Part shown: positions 11,882-50,667 of the stretch, one piece after another
How positions within the stretch are numbered: the stretch's first letter is position 1
How the letters are laid out: each line of letters begins with the position of its first letter
DNA from: Planctomycetota bacterium
GTDB taxonomy: Bacteria > Planctomycetota > J058
Reading direction: 5' to 3'
NCBI GenBank assembly: GCA_019636275.1
Contig: JAHBXY010000002.1
Span: 56,213 to 120,212, forward strand
Length of the DNA stretch: 64,000 bases
Made by a program: the position numbers and the translations under genes
Notes under the pieces: generated by a model
What the model saw: the letters and a program-made list of their open reading frames with translations, nothing else
What the model was told of the DNA's origin: nothing
Databases searched by the model: none

Positions 11882-11900
11882 GACGACAGCGTACGCCCTC

Positions 11901-33536: not shown

Positions 33537-35688
33537 CCCAATTATGTGTCTGCCAGAGTGGGGCTGAGTCGTCCTGCGCGTCCTCGGCGACGGGCTACTT
33601 CGCCTTCTTGGCCCTCCAGCCGCGGTGGCGTGGCTTCGGCTCCGCGAGTTGGGCATAGGCGACGCCAGGATCCGTCAGCATCGAGTGGTTGAGCAGCTCG
33701 AGCGCGTCACGCTGTGCGGTCGTCATGTTCGTCACGGTCACGCCGGGCACCCCGTCGACGCGGATCGTGTTGATCCCCTCGAAGAGACGGAAGACGACCT
33801 CCGTGGTCGGTCGCGTGGTCCAGCCCTTGTTCCCCGGGAAGTCGGCCCCGTGCTGCTCGAGGAGGCGGCGCACCTCCCGCTGGATGAGCGCGTAGACCAT
33901 CAGGGCCAGCACGTAAACGAGACCGAGCGCCGCGATCCGGGCGTCGGTCTTCAGGAACAGCGGCGCCACCTGTTGTGGATTCTTGAAGATCCGGATCGCG
34001 GTCTCGACCAGGTTCTGGTCCTGGTACGTGCGGAAGAGCTCCTGGTCCGAGCAAGCGTCGGGCCCCGTCGACGGGCGGGTCGTGATCAGGACGAAGCAAC
34101 TCTCGCGAAGGATAGCCTCGTCGACGTCGTGCTGGTCGTGTTCGATCGTGAGCACGGCGCGCCATACCGTTTCCATTTCGCGCTGCTCGTCTGCTGGCGG
34201 TCGTCCCGGGCCGGGGCGCTTCGTCGGTCGACGCTCGGCCACCACGCCAGCGACAAGCCGGTGAAGGTCTGGGCCGTGCCGCTCGATCGCGGCCGCAGCC
34301 GCGCGCCGGGCGTCCTCGTCGCACTTGAACTCGCGCTTGCCGAGCCGGACTGCGATCCGTTCGAGGCTCTTGCGCTCCTTGTCTCGTCGCGCCTCGATGA
34401 TCGCCGTCTTCTGCTCGCGCAAGGTCGTGGACTCAACGACGAGAGCGCGGATCGGGAACTCGTGCTCGACGCCGGTCGACTCGTCCTTCCAGCGATAGGA
34501 GAGGGCACACGAGCGGCCGTTCCACTCCTTCTCCGGCTCCGCCTCGAGGTCGTCGACGGCAGTCCCGTCCTCCAGGAACACCTTCGGGTAGACGACCTTC
34601 AGGCGAGTGAGCGGCTCGTCGCGCCCGAGAGCCGCGCGGAAGGCAGTGAACGCCTCCCCCCAGAGCCCGACACCGCGCGGCATCATCGTCAGGACATGGA
34701 AGCCGTGCTTCTGCGCGAGCAGCAGCGTCTCGCCCGAGAAGAGCTTGGCGTCGCCGACGATCGTCGTGCCCCGTGGGTCGGGGAGGACCTCGGCGAGGCG
34801 CCCCATGAGCCAACGGGTCTCCTGCGGGTCACTGCGGTTGCCGGACGACACGCGACCGAGAACGGCGACGCCGCCGTCGCAGGCCACGGCCAGTCCGTAC
34901 ACGATCTGCTTCAGGTCGCTCCGATAGTCCTTGCTGTGGCCTCTCGTGACGTGTGGAACCGCTCGCTCGTCCTCCGGGTCCAACGGCGGCACGCTGGCCG
35001 CATACTCGCCGTAGACCGAGACGGACGAGGTGTCGACGTGAATGGTCCCGAGCTCGAGGTCGTGCACTTTCACCGCACGAACGACGGCTGCAGCTTGGAT
35101 CTTCGTCGGGCCCGCGGCGAACGTGTCGTCGAGCGCCCGGGCCAACCGGTCGTCGTGGAACTGGGCGCAGCTCCCCTTCCAGCCGAACGCCAGCTCGAGG
35201 TCGTACGGCGCGAGGAGCTCGTCGATCCGATAGAGAGTGTGCCGGCCCAGCAGGATCGCGACGATCAGGGCCTCGACGCACTCACCCGCGCTCACACGAC
35301 TGCGCGGGTCCATGGGAACGATCTCGTCCACGAGGGCTGCGACGTCGAGCTGCCGCAGAGCACGTCCAATGATCGGCAAGAAGTCGAGGCGCTTCGCGCT
35401 GGCTTGCATGTGCCCTCTCCTCGCACGCCCGCGTGCGCGGGGCAAGGACAGCACGACAGCGGCCAGCACATCTCCAGCGTCCACGCCTCGCGCGGTCCAG
35501 TTGCGCATCCTTGCGCATCAGAAGCGTCTCCGGAGTGCAGCCGAACGGCGCCACGGAGTGGCCTCCAACACGGAGCTCCAACAGAATGCGCGCGGCGCGC
35601 CAGATGCACGCCAGTCGCCGCGGCTCGCCCCCCTGGGCGGCGGGGCGCCGTCGTCGGCTCTCAGTTGTTTGGCAATTACATAATTGGC
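33537..35688 (-). mobile_element. IS1634-family (IS4 superfamily) insertion sequence, ~2.15 kb, imperfect ~30-bp terminal inverted repeats (ccaattatgt...tgcca...ctgag)
   Basis: IRL 33537-33568 and IRR 35657-35688 are reverse-complementary; large DDE transposase inside. Confidence 0.65.
33595..35409 (-). CDS. IS1634-family DDE transposase (604 aa)
   Basis: Length and motifs typical of IS1634 (HVDTSSVSVYG, DGGVAVLGRV, PRGVGLWGEAFTAF); the antisense 782-aa ORF is rejected. Confidence 0.7.
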   Translation of the reverse strand: MQASAKRLDFLPIIGRALRQLDVAALVDEIVPMDPRSRVSAGECVEALIVAILLGRHTLYRIDELLAPYDLELAFGWKGSCAQFHDDRLARALDDTFAAGPTKIQAAAVVRAVKVHDLELGTIHVDTSSVSVYGEYAASVPPLDPEDERAVPHVTRGHSKDYRSDLKQIVYGLAVACDGGVAVLGRVSSGNRSDPQETRWLMGRLAEVLPDPRGTTIVGDAKLFSGETLLLAQKHGFHVLTMMPRGVGLWGEAFTAFRAALGRDEPLTRLKVVYPKVFLEDGTAVDDLEAEPEKEWNGRSCALSYRWKDESTGVEHEFPIRALVVESTTLREQKTAIIEARRDKERKSLERIAVRLGKREFKCDEDARRAAAAAIERHGPDLHRLVAGVVAERRPTKRPGPGRPPADEQREMETVWRAVLTIEHDQHDVDEAILRESCFVLITTRPSTGPDACSDQELFRTYQDQNLVETAIRIFKNPQQVAPLFLKTDARIAALGLVYVLALMVYALIQREVRRLLEQHGADFPGNKGWTTRPTTEVVFRLFEGINTIRVDGVPGVTVTNMTTAQRDALELLNHSMLTDPGVAYAQLAEPKPRHRGWRAKKAK

Positions 35689-36541
35689 GAAGCCTGGGCC
35701 GAGATGTCTGGAATGCGGGCTGAAGCGCCACCGCGATCTCCGTTACGACGACGACGACGACAAGCCAATCTCGATCATCATCACGACGCTGGCAGCCAAG
35801 GCCTATCGGAACGAGCGGGACCTGGGCTCCGCACTCCTGAACGTCGTTCCCGGAATGCGTCACGGGATCGAGCTGCGCGAAGGCAAGTGGTGGGTCCCCA
35901 ACCCCGTCGACCCGCGCGAAAACTTCGCCGACAAGTGGAACGAGACGCCTCGCAAATACGAGCTGTTCCGTGACTGGCTCCAGGCCGTCGAGACGGAGCA
36001 TCGAGCCCTCCTGAATTCGCTCGGGCCGAAATCGGGGCAAACCGTCGCAAGGCTGTTGTGTGAGTCGTACGGTGCCGACACCTCGAAGGGAGCCATCGAA
36101 AAGTTCGCCCGTCGGAATGACGCCGACACCTTCGTACTTACGGGGCCAAGGAACGCTCAGCGCTTCAGCATCGCGTATCGAGAGAATCCCCTCTGGCCTA
36201 TCTACCTGAAGCACCGCGTGACCATCTCGGGGCGCGCAACCAGGAACGGCTTCACGCCGTTCGCGTTCGAGAACGGTTCCACCGCGATTACAAAGCACTG
36301 TTCGCTTAGCTTCGCCGCGCACACCGACGTTCCCCGACCGTTCCAGGTGTTCTGGCAGGTTGTGAACACGGGCGCCGAGGCGGAGCGAGCCAAGTGCCTC
36401 CGCGGTGACCGCTTCTACCAGAGCGGTCCCACACACGATGAGATCACGCTCTATCGAGGCATGCACTGGGTGGAGTGCTTCGTCGTGAAGGACGGCATGT
36501 GCATCGCGCGGAGCGCCGAGTTCGTCGTCAACGTGCAATGA
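35689..36541 (+). pseudogene. C-terminal fragment of the IS-split nucleotidyltransferase (helical region PISIIITTLAAKAY + C-terminal beta-rich domain, possibly AGS-C-like)
   Basis: No plausible own start (TTG only); continues in-frame sense from the N-terminal fragment if the IS is removed. Confidence 0.45.
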
Positions 36542-36622: not shown

Positions 36623-37627
36623 ATGGCCACGACCGTCGACACAGCTTTTGAGGAGTTTCTTCGGACGAAGGTCAATCTCGACCCCGATGACACCGGAGGT
36701 GCCCGTAGGAGCCGCGATTGGCTCCTCGAACTGATCGCAAAGTTCCCGGACACATACGGCGACTTCCCTCTCCTCTACTCCGAACGAGACATTGCCTACG
36801 GCTCGTTCGCCCGTCGAACGAAAATCCGCGAACTCGACGACGTTGACCTGATTTCCTGCCTACACGCCACCGGGGGAACATACGTCGACCAAGGCTTCGG
36901 CGGGCCGATTCAGATCACCGTCCCAGCTTCCAGTCGACTCAGTGATTTTTGCCACGACAACAGCGCTAGCCTCAACTCCATCAAAGTGGTGAATCGTTTT
37001 GTGAAGGCATTGGCAGCCGTGCCGCAGTACAGCTCGGCAGCGATCAACAGGCGCGGCGAAGCGGCCGTCCTCGAACTCACGTCCTATCCATGGAGCTTCG
37101 ACGTCGTCCCAGGATTCTTCACTGCGCCAGACGCGCACGACCGAACCTACTACTTGATTCCAGACGGTAGCGGACACTGGAAGCGGACGGATCCGAGAAG
37201 GGACCGGGACCGGATCGCCAAGGTGAACCAAGACCATGACGGTCACGTTCTGAGCATCGTCCGTCTTATGAAGTACTGGAACCGACGCCCTACGATGCCT
37301 TCGGCACCTTCGTACATGTTCGAGTGCATGATCACGGACTACTACGAGGGGAGAGTTACGAAGGCAGTAAAGTGGGTCGACATCGAGACCGGCCAGGTAT
37401 TGCGGTACATTGCTGAGGCGGTCCTTGGTGTGGTGAACGACCCCAAGGGACTTCAGGGTGACCTGAACTCGCTGACTTTTGAGCAGCGCTGGGCAATCCG
37501 CGAGCGCGCCTTGCTCGATGCTGGACGGGCTGATGAGGCCCGCGCCCACGAGACGAGGAAGGATCATGAAAGGTCGATCAATAAGTGGCGCGAGGTCTTT
37601 GGACCGGAGTTCCCCCCATTTGAATGA
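36623..37627 (+). CDS. cdnX: cGAS/DncV-like nucleotidyltransferase (CD-NTase)
   Basis: YGSFARRTKIRELDDVDLISCL (GS...DhD active site), IVRLMKYWNRR helix typical of CD-NTases. Confidence 0.65.
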   Translation: MATTVDTAFEEFLRTKVNLDPDDTGGARRSRDWLLELIAKFPDTYGDFPLLYSERDIAYGSFARRTKIRELDDVDLISCLHATGGTYVDQGFGGPIQITVPASSRLSDFCHDNSASLNSIKVVNRFVKALAAVPQYSSAAINRRGEAAVLELTSYPWSFDVVPGFFTAPDAHDRTYYLIPDGSGHWKRTDPRRDRDRIAKVNQDHDGHVLSIVRLMKYWNRRPTMPSAPSYMFECMITDYYEGRVTKAVKWVDIETGQVLRYIAEAVLGVVNDPKGLQGDLNSLTFEQRWAIRERALLDAGRADEARAHETRKDHERSINKWREVFGPEFPPFE

Positions 37628-37734
37628 GGACAACGGGGACACGGACCCATACGGTTTGCGCCCGACCTGACGCATGCGGTGTGGCGACGCAAGTGTCGCC
37701 GTGTTGTTATTTGGCAACGAACGTGAGGAATTGA

Positions 37735-38604
37735 GTGAATTCACTTGAGCGCGTTCACGCGTGCTTTCGAGGTGCGGCCGAGATCGCGAAGACAACCACA
37801 AAGACCGGGTTCGTCCTCGAAGTGACAGCCGCCGGATTTGCCATCTGGGGGCTATTTTCAGACGTGCCGCGAATGTGGTTGCCGATCACCGGCTTAGGGC
37901 TCGCATTCGCTGCGTCGTGTGTAAGAGCGCTCGGGAGCCACTGGCGCGCCTTTTCACGCGCATGCGTTAGGACGTCAGCCCGCGCATTCGCCCTAGGAGA
38001 AGACATAGATCCCGCGACACTCTCCAGCATCGAGAGCGATGCCCCGCCGCTCGCGGCACCCTTGGCGAAGTGGCTACCGGCTCAGACCTTGCAAGGGTAC
38101 TACCAGCCACGGTTTCCCGCGGGAGAGGCGCGCTTGCGAGAAATCTATGCAGAATCAGCCTTCTTCACGTGGCGTCTGCTTCGCGTTTTCTTCTGGGCGC
38201 TCCTCCTGCTGACTCTCATCATTGCGGCGGGCGCTTTCGTTGCCCTTTACGGGCTGGTCGTCCAGTCTCCGACTGACGAGAACGTCAAGCGCGCCATCCT
38301 CGAAACATTGTGCTCCGTTACTGTCGCGATCTTTGGGATGAAGGCGGCGGAGCAGACAATTGAGGTCTTCGGCCAGGCTTCGTCCGTTCGTTCAGTAGCG
38401 GATGCCTTGATCCGAGCTCCCCTCCCTTGCGGCAAGGTTCTGGGCGAACTGGTCGACGATTACGACATCCAAATGTCTGCAGGGAAAGATCCTCCGACGC
38501 TGCTCTGGGTCCTGATGCGATCGAGCTTGAACGAACAGTGGAATCGTAGGCGTGAGGCCCTTGGACCTGTTCCCCCGACGGCGACATCGAGCGCGGAACA
38601 GTGA
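37735..38604 (+). CDS. multi-pass transmembrane protein, putative CBASS membrane effector
   Basis: Hydrophobic helices (FVLEVTAAGFAIWGLF; LPITGLGLAFAA; FFWALLLLTLIIAAGAFVALYGLVV; ILETLCSVTVAIFGM) immediately downstream of the CD-NTase. Confidence 0.45.
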   Translation: MNSLERVHACFRGAAEIAKTTTKTGFVLEVTAAGFAIWGLFSDVPRMWLPITGLGLAFAASCVRALGSHWRAFSRACVRTSARAFALGEDIDPATLSSIESDAPPLAAPLAKWLPAQTLQGYYQPRFPAGEARLREIYAESAFFTWRLLRVFFWALLLLTLIIAAGAFVALYGLVVQSPTDENVKRAILETLCSVTVAIFGMKAAEQTIEVFGQASSVRSVADALIRAPLPCGKVLGELVDDYDIQMSAGKDPPTLLWVLMRSSLNEQWNRRREALGPVPPTATSSAEQ

Positions 38605-38702: not shown

Positions 38703-39665
38703 GTGCCCAATGTGGGCGAAGGACGCTACGCTGATCTCGTGGAAGAGTCGGACACGCGGTCACGAGAGGACGCTCGCCGTGAGACAACCTGGGCTGGGTG
38801 GTGTGAGGACGTTATTGCCCGCGCGTCACTGGCACCCGGGCATGCCGAACGGGCCCGCTGTCTGCTCCCGCTACTTGTGCCTGACGAAGCTACGGCGGAC
38901 ACGCTCTCGCGGGCCTACGCATCACGCACGACGCAGTCAGCCCGTGCTGCCCTCCGAGCGTCTGTTCGAGCACTCGCCGTGAGTGTGCCTGGTGTGGCGG
39001 ATGGAAGCGTGCTGGTCGCGAGCGAGCTGTTGGAGCTTGAGTCGAGGGAACAGGACGAGACGCTCTCCGGAATCGGTCAGCACGGAGTCGACGGAGACGC
39101 AGTTATCTGGAGCGACGAAGGTCCGACCCTTCGCGAGGGCGACGGAGTGTTGGAGACACGCGCCCTCCTCTCGGCCCTTCTCGAACTGTCGGCGGTCCGC
39201 CCGGCAGTCCAAGAGCTCGGCTTCACCGTGCTCGACGGCGCCACCACGCCGACCTTCCAGCAGGATCTCCGTCGTGCGTGGGCGATCGTCAACGGCGACC
39301 CGGTGCCGTCGACCGCGAGCAACGGCGAGCCGCCGACGCCGGACGCGTTGACGTCAGTGGCCAATGAGCTTCGAGCGCTTCGCGCGGAGGTGGCCCGACG
39401 GGCCACCCCGTACGAGGGGACTGTCGACTGGATCGAGGACGTGGTTGCCGCGCTGCCGCCGCTGCTGGAGCAAGGCGAAGCCGCCAAGGCCCTCGGGGTG
39501 GATCCGCGCACCATCAGGCGCATGATCAACCGGGGCGAGTTGAAGTCCGTTGACGTAGGAGAAGGCGGCCGGGGACGATCTTGCGGCGTACGGATTCCTC
39601 GCGTCGCGATCGCCGACTTCTTGCGCGAGAAGGAAGCGCGCGGCCAGCGACCTTCTTCGCCGTGA
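38703..39665 (+). CDS. hypothetical protein with C-terminal excisionase/AlpA-like HTH
   Basis: EAAKALGVDPRTIRRMINRGELKSVDVG...RIPRVAIADFL; adjacent to integrase. Confidence 0.45.
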   Translation: MPNVGEGRYADLVEESDTRSREDARRETTWAGWCEDVIARASLAPGHAERARCLLPLLVPDEATADTLSRAYASRTTQSARAALRASVRALAVSVPGVADGSVLVASELLELESREQDETLSGIGQHGVDGDAVIWSDEGPTLREGDGVLETRALLSALLELSAVRPAVQELGFTVLDGATTPTFQQDLRRAWAIVNGDPVPSTASNGEPPTPDALTSVANELRALRAEVARRATPYEGTVDWIEDVVAALPPLLEQGEAAKALGVDPRTIRRMINRGELKSVDVGEGGRGRSCGVRIPRVAIADFLREKEARGQRPSSP

Positions 39666-39668: not shown

Positions 39669-41075
39669 CTACGTGGTCGCGGAGTCGATGGAGACGACGG
39701 CGACGCTGCTCGAAGACCCCCGGCGCTTGAGGCGAGCCACGATCGCAGCCACGTCGGCGGTGATGCCCATCGCAGCCTCGAGCGTCTTCGCGGACTTGCT
39801 GATGCCCTTGAGCAGCCCGACATAGTGACGCTCGGCGATCACGATCGAATGGCCGAGGCGCTTGGCGGAGTGGAAAGCGGCGGCGGCCGCGTAGATGCCC
39901 GGCGCGTTGGTCAGGAACGTGCCGCACGTGGCCCGCAGCGCGGGCGTCTCGTCCTCGGTCTGCGACCAGCAGAAGTCCGGCGCACCGAGCTCGTCGACGA
40001 GGCGCTTGCGCGCCGACTCGACCTTGGAACGAGACCAGGGCTCCTTGCCACCGAAGACGTACACGTCGTCCTTTCCGCGCTCGAGGGCCTCCAGGATCTT
40101 CTTGAGGCCCGGGCAGATGCTGAGGTCGATCGCGCGCTCGTGACCCGTCTTGACGTCGCCGGCGCGCAGGACGATCTCCCCTGCCTTCCTGCCCCGGCCG
40201 TCGCGGGCGTCGAAGTCGACGGAGGCCCAGCGGAGCATGAGCGCCTCGTCGCGGCGGCAGCCGGTCAGGAGCATGAAGACGATGAACGGTGCGATCGGGT
40301 CGTACTTCGGGGTGCCGCCCTTCGCACCCGCTGCCTTCTCGGTGCGAGTCATGACGAACGTGCCGGTGTCGTGGCTGAGCGCGGCCTGGAGCAGCGTCTT
40401 GATCTGCGCGACGCGGAGGAAAGCAGGCCGAGGCTTCGCGGTCTTGAGGGGCTTGATGCGGTCCTTGATGTCGTCGGACGTGATGTGAGGCAGGCGGCCG
40501 ACTCGGCGGAGCTGGTTAAGGATCGCCTTGACGGAGCGCAGGCGGTTGTTGACCCCACCGGGGGAGCAGGTGCGATCGCTCGGCGCGCGCTCGGTGCGGC
40601 GTCCGCCCTTGACGGGCCTCTTGGCGGGCCTCGCCGCCAGCCACTCGACGAACGCGGCCAGGTGGTGCGGCCGGAGATCGTCGGCGAGACGGATCCGGTT
40701 GATGTTCGCCCACTCGAGGAAGATCGTCGTGGCGGTGCGGTAGGTCTTTGGGGTGGACCCCTTGAGCCGCGCGCCCTTGGTGCTGAAGTAGCCCTCGATC
40801 GCGTCCGCGAGAGACGCGCCGGTGTGTGTCGCCGCCCCCGTGGCGAGCTTGCGCTCGCGTTCGCCCAGCGCGAGGGACTTCGTGATCATCCACTTCCGGC
40901 GCCCCTCCGCGGTCGTGATCCCCTCTGGCTCGAAGGAGAACTCCCGCGGCTTCCCGGTGTCCGGGTCGAACCAGCGCGCGCGGAGGTCGAGGCCGGCTGC
41001 GCTCCGTCGCTTGACCTCGAACACGCCCGGATGGGCCGACCTGGCCCTCCGGCGCTGCACCTTCTTCACGATCAC
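39669..41075 (-). CDS. int: tyrosine-type site-specific recombinase / phage integrase
   Basis: C-terminal catalytic region LLTGCRRDEALMLRW ... HSAKRLGHS ... ERHYVG; N-terminal SAM-like domain. Confidence 0.8.
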   Translation of the reverse strand: MIVKKVQRRRARSAHPGVFEVKRRSAAGLDLRARWFDPDTGKPREFSFEPEGITTAEGRRKWMITKSLALGERERKLATGAATHTGASLADAIEGYFSTKGARLKGSTPKTYRTATTIFLEWANINRIRLADDLRPHHLAAFVEWLAARPAKRPVKGGRRTERAPSDRTCSPGGVNNRLRSVKAILNQLRRVGRLPHITSDDIKDRIKPLKTAKPRPAFLRVAQIKTLLQAALSHDTGTFVMTRTEKAAGAKGGTPKYDPIAPFIVFMLLTGCRRDEALMLRWASVDFDARDGRGRKAGEIVLRAGDVKTGHERAIDLSICPGLKKILEALERGKDDVYVFGGKEPWSRSKVESARKRLVDELGAPDFCWSQTEDETPALRATCGTFLTNAPGIYAAAAAFHSAKRLGHSIVIAERHYVGLLKGISKSAKTLEAAMGITADVAAIVARLKRRGSSSSVAVVSIDSATT

Positions 41076-41085: not shown

Positions 41086-41146
41086 CTCAGTCAACAAGCC
41101 AGTCAACAATAGCGCGTCCGTCGGGGTCCGTGCGAGTCCGTCGGAG
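41086..41146. promoter_or_regulatory. direct repeats (2 x agtcaacaa; 2 x (c/a)gtccgtcgg(g/a)g) between integrase start and tRNA fragment, candidate arm-type recombinase-binding sites
   Basis: Seen in sequence; related GTCAA(C/T)A motifs recur at 41325 and 41337 on the other side of the tRNA fragment. Confidence 0.3.
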
Positions 41147-41199
41147 TTCCGTAAATGCCTGTGCGGCAACGTATCTACTGACGGCCCAGGAGGCCTGGC

Positions 41200-41246
41200 C
41201 GTGACTGAAAATCACGGAGTCGGCGGTTCAAGTCCGCCCTCGTCCA
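41200..41246 (+). other. 3' fragment of a tRNA-Phe(GAA) gene (anticodon arm, variable loop, T-arm, acceptor 3' strand + discriminator A); 5' half absent. Putative att site of the integrase
   Basis: cgtga-CTGAAAA-tcacg (anticodon GAA), gagtc, ggcgg-TTCAAGT-ccgcc, ctcgtcc-a; upstream sequence cannot form acceptor or D stems. Confidence 0.55.
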
Positions 41247-41260
41247 TGCGGTAAGAGAAG

Positions 41261-41287
41261 AAGGCCCCGGCGGTCGCGCCGGGGCCT
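41261..41287 (+). terminator. perfect 12-bp GC-rich hairpin (aaggccccggcg-gtc-cgccggggcctt) followed by cttctgcgtt, likely the original tRNA terminator
   Basis: Seen in sequence 15 nt after the tRNA fragment. Confidence 0.5.
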
Positions 41288-41708
41288 TCTGCGTTCCGGC
41301 GGAGCCGCGGTCGTTCAGTCAATACGCCGGTCAACATTCGCGCGGGCCATGGCCGCGCCCGATGACAACGGGCCGCCTCTCGTGGTCAGGAGCCGCACTC
41401 CTGATCCAAGGGGCTCGCGTGCGCGTGCCCCCTCCTGAGCTCACAGGGTGGAGCTTCTTCGGCGCGGTCGCGGACTGGGCTGCAGCACGAGGCACCGAAC
41501 CGGTGCCAGGAGAGCTGCATGTCCCTTCTGCTTCTCGACCTCGACGCCCGCGTCCGCGTCGCCATGATCGCGGAGCTCGATCGCGACCTCGCCGGCGACG
41601 GCCCCTTCATCTCGCCGCGGCTCACGCCGCCGGGGGTCGCGCTCGTGGAGCTCGTGAGCGTGGCGGCCCGCCAGGCCGCGACGGTCGGCCGGAACGAGGT
41701 CTGCCCTC

Positions 41709-42437
41709 GTGGTGCGCCCGGCGCGAACGGGAAGCGGAAGAAGTTCAAGAACTGCTGCCTGGTCCCGCTCGATCGCGTGGGGCCGCCGGCAGGGAGCGGC
41801 GGTGGACGACGAACTGATCGACGACCTGGTCGAGCGCGACGCGGCCGTGTCGGTGTGGCGCTTCCACGAGGAGCCGCGCGCGCTGTGGTCGGTGATCCGC
41901 GACTTCCTGGGCGGCGGCGGTCACGCGCCGAACGCGGCGCACGTGGCGCTGGCGCGCCTGCCGCTCGCGGGCGTCGTCACGCAGAACGTCGACGGCCTGC
42001 ACCAGGCGACCGGGACGCGCGCGCCGATCGTCGAGCTGCACGGGTCGCTCCTGGCGACCCGCTGCGACGCGTGCGGCGCGCGCGGGCCGGCGTGCGCGGC
42101 GCTGCTCGACGGGCCGCTGCCGCCCCCGTGCGCCTGCGGCGCCGCCCTGCGGCCCGACGTCGTGCTCTTCGGCGAGTGGGTCGCGCCCGACCGGCTCGCG
42201 CGGGCGCGGGCGCTCGTCGAGCGCTGCGACCTCTTGCTCGTCGTCGGCACGGCGGCCGACGTGTCGCCCGCGGCCGACCTCGTCCGGCTCGCCGCGGCGC
42301 GCGGGGCGCCGGTCGCCGAGGTCAAGCGGCGGCCGTCGTGCCTGCACGAGGCGGCAGGTACGCGGCACCTCCCGGGGGCGGCGGAGGACGTGCTGCCGGC
42401 GGTCGTCGAGCGCCTGCGCGCGCGGGGGACGGCGTGA
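41709..42437 (+). CDS. Sir2-family (CobB-like) protein lacking the N-terminal Rossmann GAGIS motif (truncated/frameshifted)
   Basis: PNAAHVALARL...VVTQNVDGLHQ...ELHGS...CDACG...CACG zinc ribbon; in-frame stop at 41655 prevents N-terminal extension; upstream frame (41519-) has coding GC3 and a SEC-C-like motif KRKKFKNCC. Confidence 0.55.
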   Translation: MVRPARTGSGRSSRTAAWSRSIAWGRRQGAAVDDELIDDLVERDAAVSVWRFHEEPRALWSVIRDFLGGGGHAPNAAHVALARLPLAGVVTQNVDGLHQATGTRAPIVELHGSLLATRCDACGARGPACAALLDGPLPPPCACGAALRPDVVLFGEWVAPDRLARARALVERCDLLLVVGTAADVSPAADLVRLAAARGAPVAEVKRRPSCLHEAAGTRHLPGAAEDVLPAVVERLRARGTA

Positions 42438-43069
42438 GCCTCGACGACGAGCTGCGCCGGCTCGAGCGCGCCGCGGCGCAGGGCGACCCGGAGGCGGCCG
42501 CGCGCCTGGAGGAGCTCCGCCGGCGCGCGGGGCGGCTGATCCCGGTGCCGTTAGTGATCCCGCCCCTCGGCGCGACCGTCGAGGAGGCGGAGGTCGGCGA
42601 GGTCGAGGTCCAGGTCGGGGCGCACGTGCACAAGGGCCAGCCGCTGGTCGTGCTCGAGACCGACAAGGTGTCCGTCGAGCTGGTCGCGCCGGCGGACGGC
42701 GTCGTGACGGCCGTGTCGGCGGGGGCCGGCGAGCGGCTGAGGATCGGCGCCGAGGTGGTGCAGCTCGCCTGCGCCGACCTGCCCGACGACGACCCGTGGG
42801 CGCTCCTGGCCGTGGCGCGCGCCGCGCAGGCGAGCGGGCACGCCGAGCTCGCCCTGCGCGCGCTCGACCGCGCCGTCCCGGCCGCCTCGTGCGGGGCGCT
42901 CTACCGCGAGCGCGACGCCGGGGTCGAGGGCGTCGCGCGCGCGGCGCTACGAGGCGCTCGGGCGGCGGGAGGCGCGGGCCGCTGGCGCGCCGCGCTGGAG
43001 GCGGCGCGCGGCGATGAGGCCCTGCGCGCCGAGGCGGCGGCGCGGCTGGCGGCGCTGGACGCCGGCTGA
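42434..43069 (+). CDS. lipoyl/biotinyl-attachment-like domain protein
   Basis: GTG start overlapping sirtuin stop (GTGA); VVLETDKVSVELVAPADGVVTAV resembles lipoyl-domain core; Ala/Arg-rich C-terminus. Confidence 0.45.
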   Translation: MSLDDELRRLERAAAQGDPEAAARLEELRRRAGRLIPVPLVIPPLGATVEEAEVGEVEVQVGAHVHKGQPLVVLETDKVSVELVAPADGVVTAVSAGAGERLRIGAEVVQLACADLPDDDPWALLAVARAAQASGHAELALRALDRAVPAASCGALYRERDAGVEGVARAALRGARAAGGAGRWRAALEAARGDEALRAEAAARLAALDAG

Positions 43070-43118
43070 CCCGCGCGAGGTGCCGCGGCTGCACGGCCCG
43101 ACGGGCGCGCCATGTGAA
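43011..43118. repeat. direct repeat copy 1 (~105 bp, ~85% identical to 44751-44860); includes the 3' end of gene 42434..43069
   Basis: Aligned by eye: gcgcgcggcgaYgaggccctgcgcgccgaggcRgcggcgcggctggcggcgctggac...tgacc...ggctgcacggcccgac. Confidence 0.7.
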
Positions 43119-43148
43119 GTCGGCTCGTGATGTAGCGGCCCGCGTCAC

Positions 43149-44648
43149 TCACCGCTCCTCGACGGCCTCCCGTACGACGCGCACGCTCACGTCGATCTCG
43201 CGCAGCAGCGAGCGCTCCGCAGGGGTGAAGCCCTCGAACTGGTAGGGGCGGTACTGGAACGGGTGTGCGGTGCGCCACAGCACGTCGCCCGTCGGGACCT
43301 CCTCCGCCGGTCCCAGGAGCGGATAGAGGTAGGTCGCGTTCAGCAGCCACGTGCCAGGGGGCGCCCCGGGCGGGCGCGGCGGCGCGGGCGGCCCGAGCAC
43401 GCTCGCGCGCTCCGCCATGGGCCCGAAGCGCGCGGCGACCTGCCGCTGCGCCTCGTCGGGGAACACGAGCCGCAGCGGGGCGGCGAACTGCGCGCCGGCG
43501 TGCGCGAGGAGCATGGCCCCGAGCGCCGCGCGGGCCGCCGGGGACCCCCGGCGCAGCCGGGGCGCCAGGGCCCACGCGGCCGCCAGGCAGAGGAACGGGA
43601 TCAGCGGGCGGACGAGGCGGCCGTAGACGGTGAACGTCTGGAGCAGCGTGGAGCTGACGGCGAGCGCCGCGTAGATCCCGAGCACCGCTCCCACCCACAG
43701 TCCGCCGCGCGCCCGCTCGCCCGGGTCGCCACAGCGCGCGAGCCGGTGCACCGCGAGCGCCAGCGCGGCGAGCAATCCGGCGAGGAGCGCCTTCTCCGCC
43801 TCCCACAGGTACTCCCACGGCAGGCGCCAGCCCTCGGTGAACGCCCCCTGCGTCACGGTGCGGGCGAAGCTCCGCGCCTCGCGGATGTAGGCGCCTTCGA
43901 GCAGCAACCGGTCCAGCGCCACGACGAGGCCGACCGGGCTCGCCGCGCCGATCCCGAGCGCGACCGCGCGCCGCGCGCGCGCCCACCACGACCCGGCTCG
44001 CCCGGCCGCGACCGCGACGACGCCGCCGGCGAGCATCCAGGAACCGTTGTAGGTGAGGAAGGAGGCCCCGGCGAGGAGCCCGCAGCCGAGGCTGGTCGCG
44101 AGCCGCGGCGCCGGGCTCAGGGCAAGCCAGAGCGCCGCGAGCGCCAGCGCCAGCGCCGCGTCGTAGGGCTGCAGGTGCCGCGCGGGGTAGAACAGGCTGG
44201 TCGAGCAGGCGGCCAGGAGCGCCGCCAGGAGCGCCTCGTCGGGCGGCGCGCCCATGCGCCTGGCGAGCGCGTGCACGAGGCCGATCAGGGCCACGGACAC
44301 GAGCGACAGGAAGAGGGCCGGCACCCAGAGGGTCCGCGTCCATGATGCGCGCGACTCGAGGGGCGCCCCGCGCCACACGAGGTAGAGCCCCTGCGCCAGC
44401 GCCGGGGCGGCGCCGACGTGGACCCAGCCGGTGTGCTCCGGGTCGAGGCCCATCTCGGCCGCGGCGGCGATGTCACCCTCGCGGAGGCGGAGGAGCATGA
44501 GGATCGAGCGGCCGAAGCGGCCCTCGTCGGGGAAGAAGGACTGGCCGCCGCCCAGCACCAGCGCGATGCGCACGGCGGCCGAGGCGAGGAGCAGGAGCAG
44601 CAGCGCTCGGCGCTCCCTGGACCTCCACCCCGTGCCCGCGGTCGTCAC
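43149..44648 (-). CDS. polytopic membrane glycosyltransferase-like protein (GT-C fold; ArnT/PMT/GT39-like)
   Basis: GTG start; ~11 hydrophobic helices; Arg-rich loops; bracketed by the 105-bp direct repeats. Confidence 0.5.
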   Translation of the reverse strand: MTTAGTGWRSRERRALLLLLLASAAVRIALVLGGGQSFFPDEGRFGRSILMLLRLREGDIAAAAEMGLDPEHTGWVHVGAAPALAQGLYLVWRGAPLESRASWTRTLWVPALFLSLVSVALIGLVHALARRMGAPPDEALLAALLAACSTSLFYPARHLQPYDAALALALAALWLALSPAPRLATSLGCGLLAGASFLTYNGSWMLAGGVVAVAAGRAGSWWARARRAVALGIGAASPVGLVVALDRLLLEGAYIREARSFARTVTQGAFTEGWRLPWEYLWEAEKALLAGLLAALALAVHRLARCGDPGERARGGLWVGAVLGIYAALAVSSTLLQTFTVYGRLVRPLIPFLCLAAAWALAPRLRRGSPAARAALGAMLLAHAGAQFAAPLRLVFPDEAQRQVAARFGPMAERASVLGPPAPPRPPGAPPGTWLLNATYLYPLLGPAEEVPTGDVLWRTAHPFQYRPYQFEGFTPAERSLLREIDVSVRVVREAVEER

Positions 44649-44750
44649 GGCGGCGAGCCTACACCGGGCGCCATCGTGCCGCAGGCCTCGCGGAGTCAGC
44701 CGCCTGCGCCGCTGCTCGGCGGTCCAGGCGCAGCGACCAGGCGGCGCGTC

Positions 44751-44860
44751 GAGGCGCGCGGCGACGAGGCCCTGCGCGCCGAGGCAGCGGCGCGGCTGGC
44801 GGCGCTGGACACGGGTTGACCCCACGCAAGCGCGGCGGCTGCACGGCCCGACCGCGTGCC
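44751..44860. repeat. direct repeat copy 2 (duplicated 3' end ...RGDEALRAEAAARLAALD(T/A)G*)
   Basis: See copy 1. Confidence 0.7.
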
Positions 44861-44894
44861 ATCGATCCCACCCTCCGTGCATGGAGGGTGACGC

Positions 44895-45929
44895 GTGCTC
44901 TGCGACAAGACGACCCTGCGTGCGCGCTACGACGCGATCCTGGCCGCGGGCTGCCTCGACCCGGCGCAGCAGGCGCGGGTCCGGGCGGGCGAGGCGCCGC
45001 CCGGGGTCGTGCTCCAGCAGAGCGGCGGCTCGAGCGGCGAGGCGCCCCTGCGGCTCCCCAAGGCCCGGGCCGAGACGGCCTGGCTGATCGACCGGCTGGC
45101 CGGGCACCACCGCCGCGTCTTCGGCGAGGCGCCCCGGCGCGTGGCGTTCGTCGGCGGCGTGACGCACCTCCAGGCGGGGCGCGTGGAGGGCCTGTTCCCC
45201 GGCGGCGTGACGCGCAGCTTCCGCCTGCGCGAGTGGGACGCGCTGGTCGCGTTCCAGCCGGACCTCCTCTCCTGCTACCCGAGCGCGGCGCGCGACCTCG
45301 TCGTCCGCGACGCCGCGGCGCTCGGCTGCGTGCGCACGCTGAAGCTCGGCGGCGAGACCGTCCTGCCGGCCGACCGGGCGCGCCTCCTCGAGCGCCTCCC
45401 GGGGGTCCTGCTCCTCGAGCAGTTCGGCTCGACCGAGATGCCTTGCCTGGCGCTCCGCGCCACGACCCGCGACGAGGACACGGGCTACGTCCTGAGCCGC
45501 GACCGCTACGCGTTCAGCTTCGAGCCGCCCGGCGAGGGCTGGCGCGAGGTCGTCGTGCGCGACGACCTCCCGGCGCGGGCGTTCCCGATCCCCGGCTGGT
45601 ACCGCACCGGCGACGAGGCGCTCCTCGACCCGGGCGGCCGCGTCCTGGCCCTGCGGCGCCGGGGCGACCCCGCCGCGCCGTTCCTCGACGCGCTCGACGC
45701 GCTGGTCCGCGCGGGCTGCACGCAGGTGCAGGTGGACCTGCGCGACCGCACGCTGCGCCTCGAGGCCGGGCCGGAGGTGCGGCTCGAGCGCGAGGTGGTC
45801 CTCGGCGGCGTCACGCTCGCCGTCGAGCGCGGGCCGGTCTACCGGCTGAAGGACTCGAACAAGGCGCCGCTGGTCCTGGCGGCGGTGGGCCGCGCGCCGA
45901 CCTGGCGCCGGCCGGAGGAGGAGGCATGA
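44895..45929 (+). CDS. adenylate-forming enzyme, phenylacetate-CoA ligase (PaaK)/F390-synthetase-like
   Basis: QQSGGSSGEAP (SxGTTGxP-like P-loop), YRTGD motif; GGAGGG RBS before GTG. Confidence 0.6.
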   Translation: MLCDKTTLRARYDAILAAGCLDPAQQARVRAGEAPPGVVLQQSGGSSGEAPLRLPKARAETAWLIDRLAGHHRRVFGEAPRRVAFVGGVTHLQAGRVEGLFPGGVTRSFRLREWDALVAFQPDLLSCYPSAARDLVVRDAAALGCVRTLKLGGETVLPADRARLLERLPGVLLLEQFGSTEMPCLALRATTRDEDTGYVLSRDRYAFSFEPPGEGWREVVVRDDLPARAFPIPGWYRTGDEALLDPGGRVLALRRRGDPAAPFLDALDALVRAGCTQVQVDLRDRTLRLEAGPEVRLEREVVLGGVTLAVERGPVYRLKDSNKAPLVLAAVGRAPTWRRPEEEA

Positions 45930-46924
45930 GCTCGCCGTTCACGATCACCACGGTGGAGGAGCTGCGCGCCGGCGTCGGCGAGCTGCTCGAGCGCGTCTAC
46001 GTCGACGAGTGGGGCAAGCGCCTGGCGCCCGCCGCCGGGCGCACGCGCCGCGGATCGAGCCGCACGCTGATCGCGGTCGACCGGGGCCGCGTCGTGGGGA
46101 CCGCCCGGCTCACCCGCGGCTCGGTCCTGCCGCTCGAGGAGCAGCGCCGCCTCCAGCTCCCGCACTTCGCCGCCGTCGTCCCGCTCGAGCGGCTGGCGGT
46201 CGGCGGGCGCCTCGCCGTCGCCGCGCCCCTGCGCTCGTCGGGCCTGGCGCACGACCTGCTGCAGGCCGCGATCCGCGCGGCGGTCGACGACGGCGTGCGG
46301 CTGCTGTTCACCGCCTGCCAGCCGCACCTGCTGAACCTCTACGGCCAGCTCGCGTTCACCCCCTACGGGCCGGTCTCGAGCAAGGAGGGCGTGGGCGTCC
46401 TGGTCCCGGTGGTCCGCGACCTGACCCCGGGCGACGCGGCCCTGCGCGACCTGATCGCGAGCGCGCCCGGTCACGCGGCGCGCTGCCGGCTCCCGGGCGA
46501 GCTCGGCGAGGCCCTCGCGGGGAGCCCGCTCGACCCGACCGTCGCCGCGGCGGTGCTGCGCAGCGCGGCCCTCGTCCCCTGCGGCCCGGGCGACCTCGTC
46601 GTCAGCCGCGGGCAGGCGGTCCGCACGCTGTTCCTCGTGCTCGAGGGGCGGATCGACGTCGTCGACGACGGGCAGGTCGTCGACGTCGTCGCGCGCGGCG
46701 AGTTCGCGGGCGTGGTCAGCTACCTGCTCGGGGTGCGGCAGCGCCGCGACCTGCGCGCCGGCCCCGAGGGCGCCCGGCTCCTGGCCCTGCCCGTCCAGGC
46801 CTTCGCCAGCCGCGGCGACGACGAGGCCGCCGCCGAGGCGTTCCTGCTGACCCTGGTCGCGACGCTCCGCGCGCGCTGCCCGCACGCGGCCGCCCGCCTG
46901 GTCAGCCCTGGAGGTGTCGCGTGA
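45926..46924 (+). CDS. GNAT-fold N-acyltransferase (acyl-amino-acid/AHL-synthase-like) fused to a C-terminal cyclic-nucleotide-binding domain
   Basis: ATGA overlap with upstream gene; LLFTACQPHLLNLYGQLAFTPYG; cNMP-binding signature RGEFAGVVSYLLGVRQRRDLRA. Confidence 0.5.
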   Translation: MSSPFTITTVEELRAGVGELLERVYVDEWGKRLAPAAGRTRRGSSRTLIAVDRGRVVGTARLTRGSVLPLEEQRRLQLPHFAAVVPLERLAVGGRLAVAAPLRSSGLAHDLLQAAIRAAVDDGVRLLFTACQPHLLNLYGQLAFTPYGPVSSKEGVGVLVPVVRDLTPGDAALRDLIASAPGHAARCRLPGELGEALAGSPLDPTVAAAVLRSAALVPCGPGDLVVSRGQAVRTLFLVLEGRIDVVDDGQVVDVVARGEFAGVVSYLLGVRQRRDLRAGPEGARLLALPVQAFASRGDDEAAAEAFLLTLVATLRARCPHAAARLVSPGGVA

Positions 46925-47802
46925 GCGTCCTCGTCGAGGGCAGCGGCACGGCGCAGATGATCGCGCGCTGCCTGGTCCTGCTCCGCGCCTCGGCCGGGCC
47001 CGCCGCGCCCGTGTCCGAGCGCGCCGCCCTGCTCGCCCTGGCGTTCCTGCGCGAGGCGCGCCCCCCGTGGCGCCGCGCGCTCGAGGCCGGCCTGGCGCGC
47101 GGGCGCCTCCGGCTGCTCGAGGCGCTGACGATCCCCGGCCTCGTCGGCCAGTACGCCCTGCGCAAGCGCTGGCTCGAGGACGTCGCCCGGCGCGCCGTGG
47201 CGGCGGGGGTGCGGCGCGTGGTGGTGGTCGGGGCGGGCTACGACCCGCTCGCCGCGACGCTCGCGGCCGAGCTCCCGCACGTGCGCTTCGTCGAGCTCGA
47301 CCACCCGGCCACGCAGGCGCCCAAGCGGCGCGCCCTCGAGGCGCTCGGGCTCCTCGGCCCGGTCGAGCTCCTGGCCGTCGACCTCGAGCGCACGTCGCTG
47401 GCCGACGCCCTCGGCGGGCGCGCCGACCGCGCGCTGCCGACGCTCTTCGTCGCCGAGGGCCTCCTCATGTACTTCCCGGCCGCCGCCGTCGGCGCCTTCT
47501 TCGAGGACCTGGGCCGGGTCGCGGGGCCGGGGAGCCAGGTGGCGTTCAGCTTCATGGAGCCGGACGCCGGCGGCGGGCTGGCCTACCGCGGCTCGACGCG
47601 GCTGGCGAACGCCTGGCTCCGCTGGCGCGGCGAGCCCCTGCGCTGGGGGATCGCGCGCGCCGCGCTGGCCGACTTCCTTCACGGCCACGGCCTCTCGCTG
47701 CTCGAGACCGCCGCGTCCGACGAGCTGCGCGACCGCTACCTGCCCGGCGCCGAGGTCGCGCGGGGCGAGGTCCTGGCCCTGGCGCGGCTGGAGGGGCCCT
47801 GA
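46921..47802 (+). CDS. SAM-dependent methyltransferase (leucine-carboxyl/TcmP-like O-methyltransferase family)
   Basis: GTGA overlap; VVVVGAGYDPL motif; length ~293 aa. Confidence 0.6.
   Translation: MSVLVEGSGTAQMIARCLVLLRASAGPAAPVSERAALLALAFLREARPPWRRALEAGLARGRLRLLEALTIPGLVGQYALRKRWLEDVARRAVAAGVRRVVVVGAGYDPLAATLAAELPHVRFVELDHPATQAPKRRALEALGLLGPVELLAVDLERTSLADALGGRADRALPTLFVAEGLLMYFPAAAVGAFFEDLGRVAGPGSQVAFSFMEPDAGGGLAYRGSTRLANAWLRWRGEPLRWGIARAALADFLHGHGLSLLETAASDELRDRYLPGAEVARGEVLALARLEGP
47653..47802. repeat. direct repeat copy 1 = 3' end of the methyltransferase gene; copy 2 at 52612-52716 has a ~48-bp internal deletion
   Basis: gcgcgccgcgctggccgacYtcct...gcgcgRccgctacctgcccggcgccg(a/c)ggtcgcgcggggcgaggtcct(g/c)gccctggcgcgg. 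Confidence 0.7.
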
Positions 47803-47874
47803 TGCCGACCGCGGAAGCTCGAGCGTGGCCGCGCCCCCCGCCTCCTCATGGCAGGGGCGGCGTCCGGAGGGACG

Positions 47875-48747
47875 ATGAGTCCCATGTCCGACGGGTCCAT
47901 GCCAGCGGCGTTCCTGGGCCACGGCAGCCCCATGAACGCGCTGGAGACGAATCGCTTCACGGCGGCCTGGCGGGCGTTCGGCGCGAGCGCTCCGCGGCCG
48001 CGCGGCATCGTCGTCGTCTCGGCGCACTGGTACGTGAACGTCACGGCGGTGACCGCCATGCCGTCGCCGCGCACGATCCACGACTTCTACGGCTTCCCGC
48101 GGCCGCTGTTCGAGGTGCAGTACCCCGCGCCGGGCGACCCCGGCCTCGCCGAGGAGGTCGCCGAGGTGGCGAAGCCCACCTCGGTCGGCCTGGACCACGA
48201 CGGCTGGGGGCTCGACCACGGCACCTGGTCGGTGCTGGTCCACGCCTTCCCGCGCGCCGACGTCCCGGTCGTGCAGCTCTCGATCGACGCGCGGCGGACG
48301 TTCGACGAGCACCTCGAGCTCGGGGCGCGGCTGGCGCCGCTCCGCGCGCGTGGCGTGCTGGTCCTGGGCAGCGGTAACGTCGTCCACAACCTGCGCGAGC
48401 TCGACTGGTCCCGGCCGGACCTGGGCGAGGACTGGGCGCGGCGCTTCGACGACGCCGCGCGCGAGGTGCTGGCCGAGCGCCCGGCCGACGCGGCCGCGCT
48501 CCAGGGCCACCCCGAGTTCCGCCGGGCCCACCCGACGCCGGACCACTTCCTCCCCCTGCTGTACGTCGCCGGCGCGGCGGCCGCGGCGGGCAAGCCCCTG
48601 CGGCGGCTCGTCGCAGGGCACGCCTACGGCTCGATCTCCATGGCCGCGTACGGGCTCGCCGCGGCCTGCCCGGAGACCTCCGAGGGCGGCCCCGCCGCGA
48701 GCCTCCCGGACCCGCGCGTCGTCCCCCCGGCGGACGCGAACGTCTGA
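47875..48747 (+). CDS. class III extradiol ring-cleavage dioxygenase (LigB family; YgiD/DOPA-dioxygenase-like)
   Basis: MPAAFLGHGSPMNALE...VVSAHW...; typical length. Confidence 0.7.
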   Translation: MSPMSDGSMPAAFLGHGSPMNALETNRFTAAWRAFGASAPRPRGIVVVSAHWYVNVTAVTAMPSPRTIHDFYGFPRPLFEVQYPAPGDPGLAEEVAEVAKPTSVGLDHDGWGLDHGTWSVLVHAFPRADVPVVQLSIDARRTFDEHLELGARLAPLRARGVLVLGSGNVVHNLRELDWSRPDLGEDWARRFDDAAREVLAERPADAAALQGHPEFRRAHPTPDHFLPLLYVAGAAAAAGKPLRRLVAGHAYGSISMAAYGLAAACPETSEGGPAASLPDPRVVPPADANV

Positions 48748-49013
48748 TCCGAGGAGAAACCAGGTCGGGTCGATGCGCCACCTGCGCAGGAGCGGCGCGG
48801 ACGAGGGGCCACGGAGGTCCCGGCGGCGGGTCGGGCGAGCCCCCGGTTCGCGCGCTCGCGCTGCAACGGCGTACGTCGAGCGGCCTCGCGCGCGCGGTGG
48901 CCGTTGGTCCCGCACGTGCGCTACCTCGGCACGAGGAGAGGGACGCCGCGAGACCGAGGAGCTCGCCGCCGGCGGGGTCACGGTCGTGTCTGGATCCCGG
49001 AGGAAGGTGAAGC

Positions 49014-49604
49014 ATGCTCAAGCTGGCCATCATCATTGGGAGCACGCGCCCGGGGCGCGTCGGCGAGAGCGTCGCTCGGTGGGTCCACGAGGTGGCGCAG
49101 CGGCGCGACGACGCGGAGTTCGAGCTGGTCGACATCGAGGACTTCGACCTGCCGCTGCTGGACGAGCCGATCCCGCCCGCCATGGGCAAGTACTCGAAGC
49201 CCCACACGAAGCGCTGGGCGGCGAAGATCGCCTCCTTCGACGGCTTCGTCTTCGTGACGCCCGAGTACAACCACGGCATCTCCGGCGCGCTGAAGAACGC
49301 GATCGACTTCCTCTACGCCGAGTGGAACGACAAGGTGGCCGGGTTCGTCGGCTACGGCAGCGCGGGCGGCGCGCGGGCCGTGGAGCAGCTGCGGCTGGTC
49401 ATGGCCGAGGTGCAGGTCGCGACGGTGCGCAACCAGGTCATGCTCTCGTTGCGCGAGGACTTCGAGGACTACAGCAGGTTCAGGCCGCGCAGCTTCCACG
49501 AGCAGGCGCTCGGTCAGGTGCTCGACCAGGTCGTCGCCTGGAGCGGCGCGCTCCGCGGCGTCCGGGAGGGGCACGCGACGTCCGGCGCGTCCACGCGCGG
49601 GTAG
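49014..49604 (+). CDS. NAD(P)H-dependent FMN reductase (flavodoxin-like fold)
   Basis: MLKLAIIIGSTRPGRVGE...FVTPEYNHGISGALKNAIDFL. Confidence 0.7.
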   Translation: MLKLAIIIGSTRPGRVGESVARWVHEVAQRRDDAEFELVDIEDFDLPLLDEPIPPAMGKYSKPHTKRWAAKIASFDGFVFVTPEYNHGISGALKNAIDFLYAEWNDKVAGFVGYGSAGGARAVEQLRLVMAEVQVATVRNQVMLSLREDFEDYSRFRPRSFHEQALGQVLDQVVAWSGALRGVREGHATSGASTRG

Positions 49605-49606
49605 CG

Positions 49607-50650: not shown

Positions 50651-50667
50651 GCGGCGGGAGGGCGGGG

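Follow-up and report, generated by a model that had tools for sequence, protein, structure and literature searches.

What became of the first half of a sirtuin gene that now begins in mid-domain at the edge of a genomic island, and does the frame that precedes it have any part in the answer? We address this question in a 64,000-nucleotide stretch of DNA (the window) from a metagenome-assembled genome (MAG) of a Planctomycetota bacterium (assembly GCA_019636275.1, contig JAHBXY010000002.1), where an open reading frame (ORF) for part of a SIR2-type sirtuin runs directly into a gene for a lipoyl-domain protein. The original prediction saw here a sirtuin lacking its Rossmann GAGIS part, with a core beginning at PNAAH and a stop at 41655 closing its frame; an upstream frame of high GC3 (guanine plus cytosine, GC, at third codon positions) with a SEC-C-type KRKKFKNCC motif, suggestive of a frameshifted fusion; and a translationally coupled lipoyl-like neighbour, making up a divergent or a decaying sirtuin/lipoyl-carrier module. 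We find that the decaying alternative is the better one: the sirtuin-derived part, 41830-42437, is very probably a pseudogene, the 3′ 47% of a TPR-sirtuin fusion gene that was 5′-truncated by a mobile-element-associated rearrangement.

A sirtuin gene without its 5′ part

The ORF at 41709-42437 matches Pfam SIR2 (PF02146) with E=3.1e-26, over profile positions 29-180 of 180 only, so the truncation was rightly called: the GAGxS NAD-binding loop and the N-terminal Rossmann strand, which mark membership of this family, are missing. Other sirtuin motifs are kept (VTQNVDGLH, the catalytic HG in ELHGS, and the four zinc cysteines in RCDACG...PCACG), and these are invariant in the TPR-SIR2 family described below. 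The TGA at 41655-41657 does shut the sirtuin frame on its upstream side; sirtuin-derived sequence, however, starts at 41830 (ERDAAVSVW...) rather than at PNAAH.

The evidence that carries our interpretation comes from L001, a 12.6-kb Logan metagenome contig, of which positions 3029-12588 align by blastn with window positions 41830-51445 in one block, 96.9% identical over 9.6 kb. Directly upstream of its lipoyl gene, L001 encodes a 431-residue SIR2 protein whose stop overlaps the lipoyl-gene start, and which has a TPR-like N-terminal domain followed by a complete SIR2 match (profile 1-180). The ortholog is therefore a TPR-SIR2 protein, neither the stand-alone CobB that would have spoken against the original prediction nor a SEC-C fusion. 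Its LTGAGLS lies at residues 209-215, and LTGAG (209-213) falls upstream of the breakpoint at residue 231. The remnant has thus lost the TPR-like domain, strand beta1 and the LTGAGxSxxSGLxTRKELW NAD loop, and with them the family-invariant positions G211, G213, S215, S218, G219 and W227; over what is left it is identical to the L001 protein at 195 of 201 residues, with 11 substitutions. It is predicted to be unable to bind NAD+ and should be inactive. Because 230 codons (53% of the gene) are absent from the window, no single indel can restore the sirtuin. With 229 of the lost N-terminal residues and the two upstream ORFs of L001 as queries, tblastn found no counterpart of either in the 64 kb, and a gene split within the window, with its N-terminal half elsewhere, is ruled out by the same search.

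The break itself is sharp. At 41829/41830 a near-perfect match between L001 and the window gives way to noise in the space of a few bases, and to the left of this point only L001 1-128 matches, at 77% (window 41219-41345); the sole window match of L001 129-3028 is 71 nucleotides long and at chance level.

Open frames are a poor guide across such a break. The whole of 41519-43069 is a single open frame of 516 codons, yet it is not one gene, since the coding phase read from GC3 switches frames: it follows the 41519 frame to about 41790, lies in the sirtuin frame between about 41775 and 42437, and is back in the 41519 frame from 42434. The window as a whole is 71% GC, and at 80% GC open frames are uninformative, as seen in the remnant, where a wrong frame stays open for 210 codons as well. 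Automatic ORF calling could thus take the locus for a 516-residue fusion or for a short sirtuin. In the protein collection searched we found no protein containing the remnant, although the NCBI product of the neighbouring lipoyl gene is there, an absence consistent with the depositor having annotated a pseudogene.

The upstream frame is the end of another gene

The upstream frame does carry the high, coding-type GC3 first noticed in it. By phmmer its 94-residue peptide matches P0124, a protein of 203 residues (E=2.4e-20), and by BLASTP residues 42-94 are 83% identical over 53 residues to the P0124 C-terminus (...VSVAARQAATVGRNELCPCGALGPNGKRKKFKHCCLVPLDRVGPPAGSAPRWTKN), whereas upstream of residue 42 (P0124 residue 145) BLASTP finds no similarity, or weak similarity at best. 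On the window this homology runs from about 41615-41648 to 41797; in DNA, L083, the contig that encodes P0124, is 87% identical to window 41648-41823. An indel had been suspected at 41780-41810 and there is one, a 4-nucleotide deletion at 41799/41800, but it lies in the tail of the SEC-C gene, six codons before the native stop (TGA 41815-41817), and reconnects nothing to the sirtuin. The window and L083 share the gene end ...TGGACGA.GAACTGA, so that the stop is conserved but moved to the third frame (RWTTN* in the window, PRWTKN* in P0124).

The SEC-C assignment stands in part. KRKKFKNCC is present, with CPCG...KKFKHCC as its counterpart in P0124, and one motif cysteine has been lost from the fragment (CPCG to CPRG); P0124 itself matches Pfam SEC-C weakly (E=0.02, 15.2 bits, under the cut-off of 20.4), and the window peptide gives no Pfam SEC-C (PF02810) match at E<=1. 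In L083 a convergent integrase gene lies 17 nucleotides from the SEC-C gene and is 71% identical in DNA to the window integrase at 39669-41075. Since it adjoins this related integrase, the SEC-C gene can be assigned to the cargo of integrative elements of that one family. We read the upstream frame as what decay has left of the 3′ end of a separate gene, unrelated to the sirtuin. That it continues to 43069 without a stop is due to the GC content, and its landing in the frame of the lipoyl gene is chance.

The border of an integrative island

From left to right, the order of features is a genomic island, an integrase, a tRNA-Phe fragment with repeats, the SEC-C fragment and, 12 nucleotides past the SEC-C stop, the sirtuin remnant. 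GC content steps up at about 41.8 kb, from 0.60-0.74 on the left side to 0.71-0.81 on the other. By Pfam and PADLOC, the island contains three resistance-nodulation-division (RND) heavy-metal efflux sets, a P-type ATPase, DDE and DUF4277 transposases and two cyclic-oligonucleotide-based anti-phage signalling systems (CBASS).

From about 41199 the tRNA-like stretch is the 3′ part of a tRNA-Phe(GAA), 48 nucleotides comprising the anticodon arm, the T arm and the acceptor 3′ strand. Its acceptor pairs are mismatched and its D arm has 7 nucleotides where the model has 15; it is visible to Rfam at a relaxed threshold only, and ARAGORN finds no tRNA in the window. It lies 108-124 nucleotides from the integrase start codon, and its last part (41219-41246) is identical to the first 28 nucleotides of L001. 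L001 also has a GC-rich hairpin after its tRNA end, corresponding to the terminator-like hairpin of the window. The 30-nucleotide repeat occurs twice in the window, against 0.01 copies expected, and the two copies flank the tRNA fragment; a third (TCAGTCAAYANGCCRGTCA) stands at L001 97-126, at the same 69-nucleotide distance from the tRNA end as the right copy in the window. These repeats are possibly arm-type sites of the recombinase.

Because L001 has the same tRNA end upstream of an intact sirtuin, the tRNA-Phe site is a true neighbour of the sirtuin locus; the distance between the two is 2.3 kb in L001 and 0.58 kb to the remnant in the window. We interpret the tRNA-Phe fragment as the remnant of an attachment (att) site, and this region of the window as the right end of a large integrative island. 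Islands that target tRNA genes by means of tyrosine integrases are the general class for comparison. Like them, the window has an integrase beside a partial 3′ tRNA, lower-GC resistance and defence cargo, and a decayed border; unlike typical members, it shows only one att-like copy within the 64 kb, and its border reaches into a chromosomal gene.

The coupled lipoyl-domain gene

The GTG start at 42434 overlaps the sirtuin stop TGA at 42435-42437 (GTGA), so the predicted translational coupling to the next gene is seen in the sequence. The lipoyl-like core proposed for that gene reaches profile significance: its product matches Biotin_lipoyl (PF00364) with E=2.1e-15 (56.7 bits, cut-off 22.1), whereas GCV_H (PF01597) stays below its cut-off (E=0.074, 13.4 bits against 22.2), and the best NCBIfam and PDB matches are lipoyl domains of E2 subunits, with the E. 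coli pyruvate dehydrogenase (PDH) E2 at 5e-15 in the PDB. The predicted attachment lysine, K78, is invariant across the partner proteins aligned (7 of 7).

The protein is 100% identical to P0001, the NCBI MAG protein KF878_01270. It has only three relatives in a large protein collection, one of which (89% identical) is on L001; an exact-sequence look-up returned no record of the window protein or of P0001, and a genome-contig pattern scan from the lipoyl-protein alignment yielded only E2 lipoyl domains of alphaproteobacterial type, with no ortholog and not even the source genome. A compensated frameshift in its TPR-like tail rewrites about 17 codons, where the 89% relative (P0002) and a 66% relative (P0003) agree against the window, and the GC3 phase is disturbed at 42855-43064. 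All other indels of the 9.6-kb block shared with L001 lie outside gene bodies (intergenic or at a gene end), and for this reason the assembly is not generally indel-prone. The lipoyl gene has been deprived of the upstream partner to which it was coupled, and first lesions are visible in it.

How the truncation arose

The most likely history is one in which elements of a single family integrated repeatedly at the tRNA-Phe gene near the sirtuin locus. A second, older copy of the element would once have lain between the present island and the chromosome, with deletions later removing most of it; this is suggested by what separates the tRNA fragment from the remnant, 580 bp that hold an arm-like repeat and a gene fragment of the element family. 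One deletion would have run from 12 nucleotides past the SEC-C stop, across the end of the older copy and the adjoining chromosomal DNA, as far as sirtuin codon 230, and would have taken with it the 5′ 230 codons (the TPR-like domain and the NAD-binding Rossmann start) and any promoter upstream of the original start.

Several observations weigh against a truncated pseudogene at an island border. The junction is seen in one MAG assembly only, and the GC step coincides with it, as a chimeric join would also give. Neither a second att copy (25-nucleotide core) nor an intact tRNA-Phe is present in the 64-kb window, although either may lie beyond it; the limits of the island and the tandem-element history are for that reason not demonstrated. 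In the right flank of the tRNA fragment, identity to L001 is only 77%, compared with 97% along the backbone, and L001 has different DNA in this flank, including an ORF of 393 codons without a family match, so that the history of the locus is more complex than one deletion. Finally, neither a stop nor a frameshift interrupts the remnant, and its ratio of non-synonymous to synonymous change (pN/pS) is below 1; given only 11 substitutions relative to L001, such a lesion-free remnant fits a recent event.

The alternative that survives best, though we consider it unlikely, is a contig chimera, in which island sequence of one genome has been misjoined to the middle of a sirtuin gene of another and the true gene is intact. 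The sequence does come from a metagenome, its GC shifts by about 7 points at the junction, and the junction does not recur in a second assembly: L001 and P0127, its only close relatives, have an intact gene. However, the tRNA-Phe 3′ end, the hairpin and the 30-nucleotide repeat occur near the sirtuin in L001 and in the window alike, an agreement that a random misjoin would hardly produce; no repeat coincides with the junction; the sequence to its left breaks off in decayed fragments, which is what one expects of real genomic scars; and the lipoyl gene of the same genome carries lesions of its own.

Still less probable is that a truncated protein is made, from GTG 41709 or GTG 41799, either with a non-catalytic role (for example as a partner of the lipoyl protein) or complemented by an N-terminal half encoded elsewhere. 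The intact frame, the conservation relative to L001 and the retained GTGA coupling would fit this, as would the pN/pS of 0.50; this value compares with 0.85 for the lipoyl gene and 0.14-0.43 for eight neighbouring genes, all from very small counts, and the trend runs in the direction expected of relaxed selection, which is suggestive only as the counts are too small to carry weight. Against a functional product, so few substitutions cannot show selection, the first Rossmann strand and the NAD loop are gone, the N-terminal half is absent from the window, no protein of the NCBI records is at least 98% identical to it, and there is no split sirtuin among the relatives listed.

A frameshifted fusion, mutational or programmed, with the SEC-C-frame peptide as sirtuin N-terminus, had in its favour coding-type GC3 right up to the sirtuin frame and a real indel, but is extremely improbable: the upstream frame belongs to an independent protein with its own conserved stop, the intact ortholog has a TPR domain and no SEC-C motif there, the listed members of the TPR-SIR2 family have no precomputed Pfam SEC-C match, and any such fusion would still be without the invariant NAD loop.

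The intact TPR-SIR2 family and its lipoyl partner

Searching with the L001 protein, we found about 50 full-length TPR-SIR2 proteins of 400-470 residues, the named sources being Labilithrix, Archangium, Hyalangium and Nannocystis. The family has a cofactor loop SGLxTRK[EQ]LW where ordinary sirtuins have SGIPTFRGxxGLW, a 4-residue deletion, and it keeps TQNVD, HG and the zinc cysteines; this loop and an N-terminal TPR-like domain of about 200 residues are found together in the L001 protein and 12 relatives, and both are deleted in the window. A scan of metagenome contigs from the TPR-SIR2 alignment, for which generic sirtuin motifs were chosen, returned mostly ordinary CobB-like genes, and L087 as sole family member.

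In 8 of the 11 loci inspected, the TPR-SIR2 gene is followed immediately by a Biotin_lipoyl gene that overlaps or abuts it: the window, L001, L002, L084, L169, L085 (Labilithrix), L168 (Nannocystis) and the contig of P0135, which has two Biotin_lipoyl genes. Such a partner is missing at L086 (Archangium), L167 and L087; other neighbours are unrelated. The named records that carry the pair are Myxococcota. As a side observation, the NCBI label of the MAG is "Planctomycetes bacterium" while every named TPR-sirtuin relative (Labilithrix, Nannocystis, Archangium, Hyalangium) is from the Myxococcota, and the label may deserve a check.

What all partner proteins have in common is just the lipoyl domain, including the invariant lysine, to which the closer ones add a shared N-terminal helix. 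The tails vary: some are TPR-like, and others carry an LLAAIxAAPDD...YADFL motif and, after it, a repeat region, which in L084 (7241-8335) and L085 (7305-8360) is leucine-rich-repeat-like. We take this motif to resemble the TIGR02996 domain. In P0191, from an AT-rich organism, a lipoyl-like stretch bearing LETDK appears to be fused to TPR and SIR2 parts with the same cofactor loop; the Pfam score of this stretch is 20.7 against a cut-off of 22.1, and in an AlphaFold2 model the TPR and SIR2 parts are confident and the lipoyl-like N-terminus has a predicted local distance difference test score (pLDDT) of 41-61.

This linkage supports, at the level of gene order, a dedicated enzyme-substrate pair. 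On the evidence of gene linkage alone, the TPR domain would recruit a sirtuin with deacylase-type chemistry to its own lipoyl-domain partner, whose invariant lysine, in acylated and probably lipoylated form, would be what the sirtuin acts on. An anti-phage defence role for the pair was also entertained and rejected: PADLOC gave no match for the sirtuin or for the lipoyl protein, and the domain belongs to the true sirtuin family PF02146.

Comparison with known sirtuin/lipoyl systems

Two precedents are relevant. In Staphylococcus and Streptococcus, an operon links the sirtuin SirTM with GcvH-L, a macrodomain protein and LplA2, and class M sirtuins of this kind, in which QG stands in the place of the catalytic HG, act as ADP-ribosyltransferases (Rack et al. 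2015, PMC4518038). The TPR-SIR2 gene is likewise linked to a stand-alone lipoyl carrier, suggesting a private substrate. The lipoamidase/ADP-ribosylation module first proposed is thus matched loosely, by the lipoyl neighbour, but not in its details: the family, and the remnant, keep HG; the carrier is an E2-type lipoyl domain (PF00364) and not GcvH (PF01597); the sirtuin has an N-terminal TPR domain; the window copy is truncated; and neither a macrodomain nor LplA is among the Pfam results for window 43149-46924 or for L001, L084, L085, L168 and L169, where several neighbours are without a Pfam result. The retained HG favours deacylation over ADP-ribosylation of the SirTM type.

The second precedent is that of the sirtuin lipoamidases CobB and SrtN, of which CobB strips E2 lipoyl domains of their lipoyl groups (Rowland et al. 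2017, PMC5596343). Here the TPR-SIR2 family is similar in enzyme class and in the type of target domain: its nearest NCBIfam models are NAD-dependent deacylases, HG, QN and the zinc cysteine motifs are kept, and the domain encoded next to it is of the E2 type that CobB targets. The L001 ortholog scores below the cut-offs of those models (NF001753, 180.7 against 243; NF040867, 173.9 against 320), and its closest solved structure is Sir2-Af1 (PDB 1ICI), a class III deacylase (E=5.6e-35). In that alignment ...vwkwYawR... of Sir2-Af1 stands opposite ...lwsvIrdF... of the ortholog, so that the Tyr and Arg which we take to be the class III Tyr-x-x-Arg pair binding acyl carboxylates read Ile and Phe. 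Unlike CobB, which acts globally, TPR-SIR2 has a TPR domain of about 200 residues, the SGLxTRK[EQ]LW loop and a private partner.

Other features of the window

The features on which the argument rests are collected in Table 1.

Table 1. Features at the island border and the sirtuin/lipoyl locus (window positions)
Feature	Position	Strand	Evidence and remarks
Lower-GC genomic island	1-41075	.	At least 41 kb, runs off the left end of the window; GC, Pfam, PADLOC
HTH_17 (excisionase-like) gene	38703-39665		Pfam
Tyrosine-recombinase-type integrase	39669-41075	-	Pfam Phage_integrase E=7.2e-6, 26.3 bits, just below cut-off 27.1
30-nt direct repeat, left copy (TCAGTCAAYANGCCRGTCA...)	41087-41116	+	Repeat search
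Non-functional tRNA-like stretch	41183-41246	+	Rfam tRNA 27.3 bits against gathering score 29
Perfect 14-bp hairpin, terminator-like	41259-41290	+	Inverted repeat, 100% complementary; directly 3′ of tRNA fragment
30-nt direct repeat, right copy	41315-41344	+	Repeat search
SEC-C-motif gene fragment	41519-41817	+	ATG 41519 with AGGAGA upstream; P0124/L083 homology
Rearrangement junction	41824-41829	.	blastn: L083 similarity ends at 41823, L001 similarity starts at 41830
3′ remnant of TPR-SIR2 gene, very probably a pseudogene	41830-42437	+	Residues 231-431 of 431; comparison with L001 ortholog, Pfam SIR2
Lipoyl-domain protein gene, 211 residues	42434-43069	+	Pfam Biotin_lipoyl; PDB E2 lipoyl domains
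Predicted lipoyl-attachment Lys78 codon (ETDK)	42665-42667	+	Aligns with DK of E. coli E2 lipoyl domains
Compensated frameshift in TPR-like tail of lipoyl gene	42930-42981	+	+1 at 42930, -3 at 42972, -1 at 42981 relative to L001

Most of the island (1-30200) is taken up by the RND efflux sets (ACR_tran, HlyD with HMBD, OEP), the P-type ATPase and the DDE transposase; within it an ORF of 1429 codons (2568-6857) has two ACR_tran stretches, overlaps the next ORF and may be disrupted. In the first CBASS system the SAVED-HNH effector (31415-32788) is intact, and the CD-NTase (nucleotidyltransferase) gene is apparently split by a DUF4277 transposase gene (32804-33658, 33595-35508 on the minus strand, 35684-36541), its halves matching PADLOC PDLC00770 at positions 5-236 and 235-509 of 509. 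In a second CBASS-like pair (36623-38604) the cyclase is full-length (PDLC00802, E=1.9e-131), and what comes after it matches a four-transmembrane (4TM) effector weakly.

To the right of the lipoyl gene, a group conserved with L001 (44895-47802) encodes AMP-binding-like (weak match), FeeM/GNAT plus cyclic-nucleotide (cNMP)-binding and LCM-type methyltransferase proteins with overlapping starts and stops; these may be a small acyl-amino-acid biosynthetic set. Further on, at 52709-55741 on the minus strand, is a gene for a 1010-residue protein with HTH_3, NACHT and C-terminal FGE-sulfatase domains.

Implications for the sirtuin family

The window locus itself reflects an ordinary event, a gene halved at the ragged edge of an island, and contributes only a broken copy to its family. 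The intact family is apparently an undescribed variant of the linkage between sirtuins and lipoyl carriers: a full-text literature search, incomplete in coverage, gave no description of a TPR-sirtuin/lipoyl-domain pair. We tentatively suggest, as a possibility that we would put somewhat below even chances, that the intact locus is a second, independent sirtuin/lipoyl-carrier signalling pair after SirTM/GcvH-L, in which a TPR-tethered sirtuin with HG retained and an unusual cofactor loop (TRK[EQ] for FRG) writes or erases a modification on the lysine of a private, stand-alone partner while the variable tail of the partner couples it to different outputs, and of which the window holds a recently inactivated copy. 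Such an intact pair could be a genetically isolated system in which to study the action of bacterial sirtuins on lipoyl domains outside the central dehydrogenase complexes.

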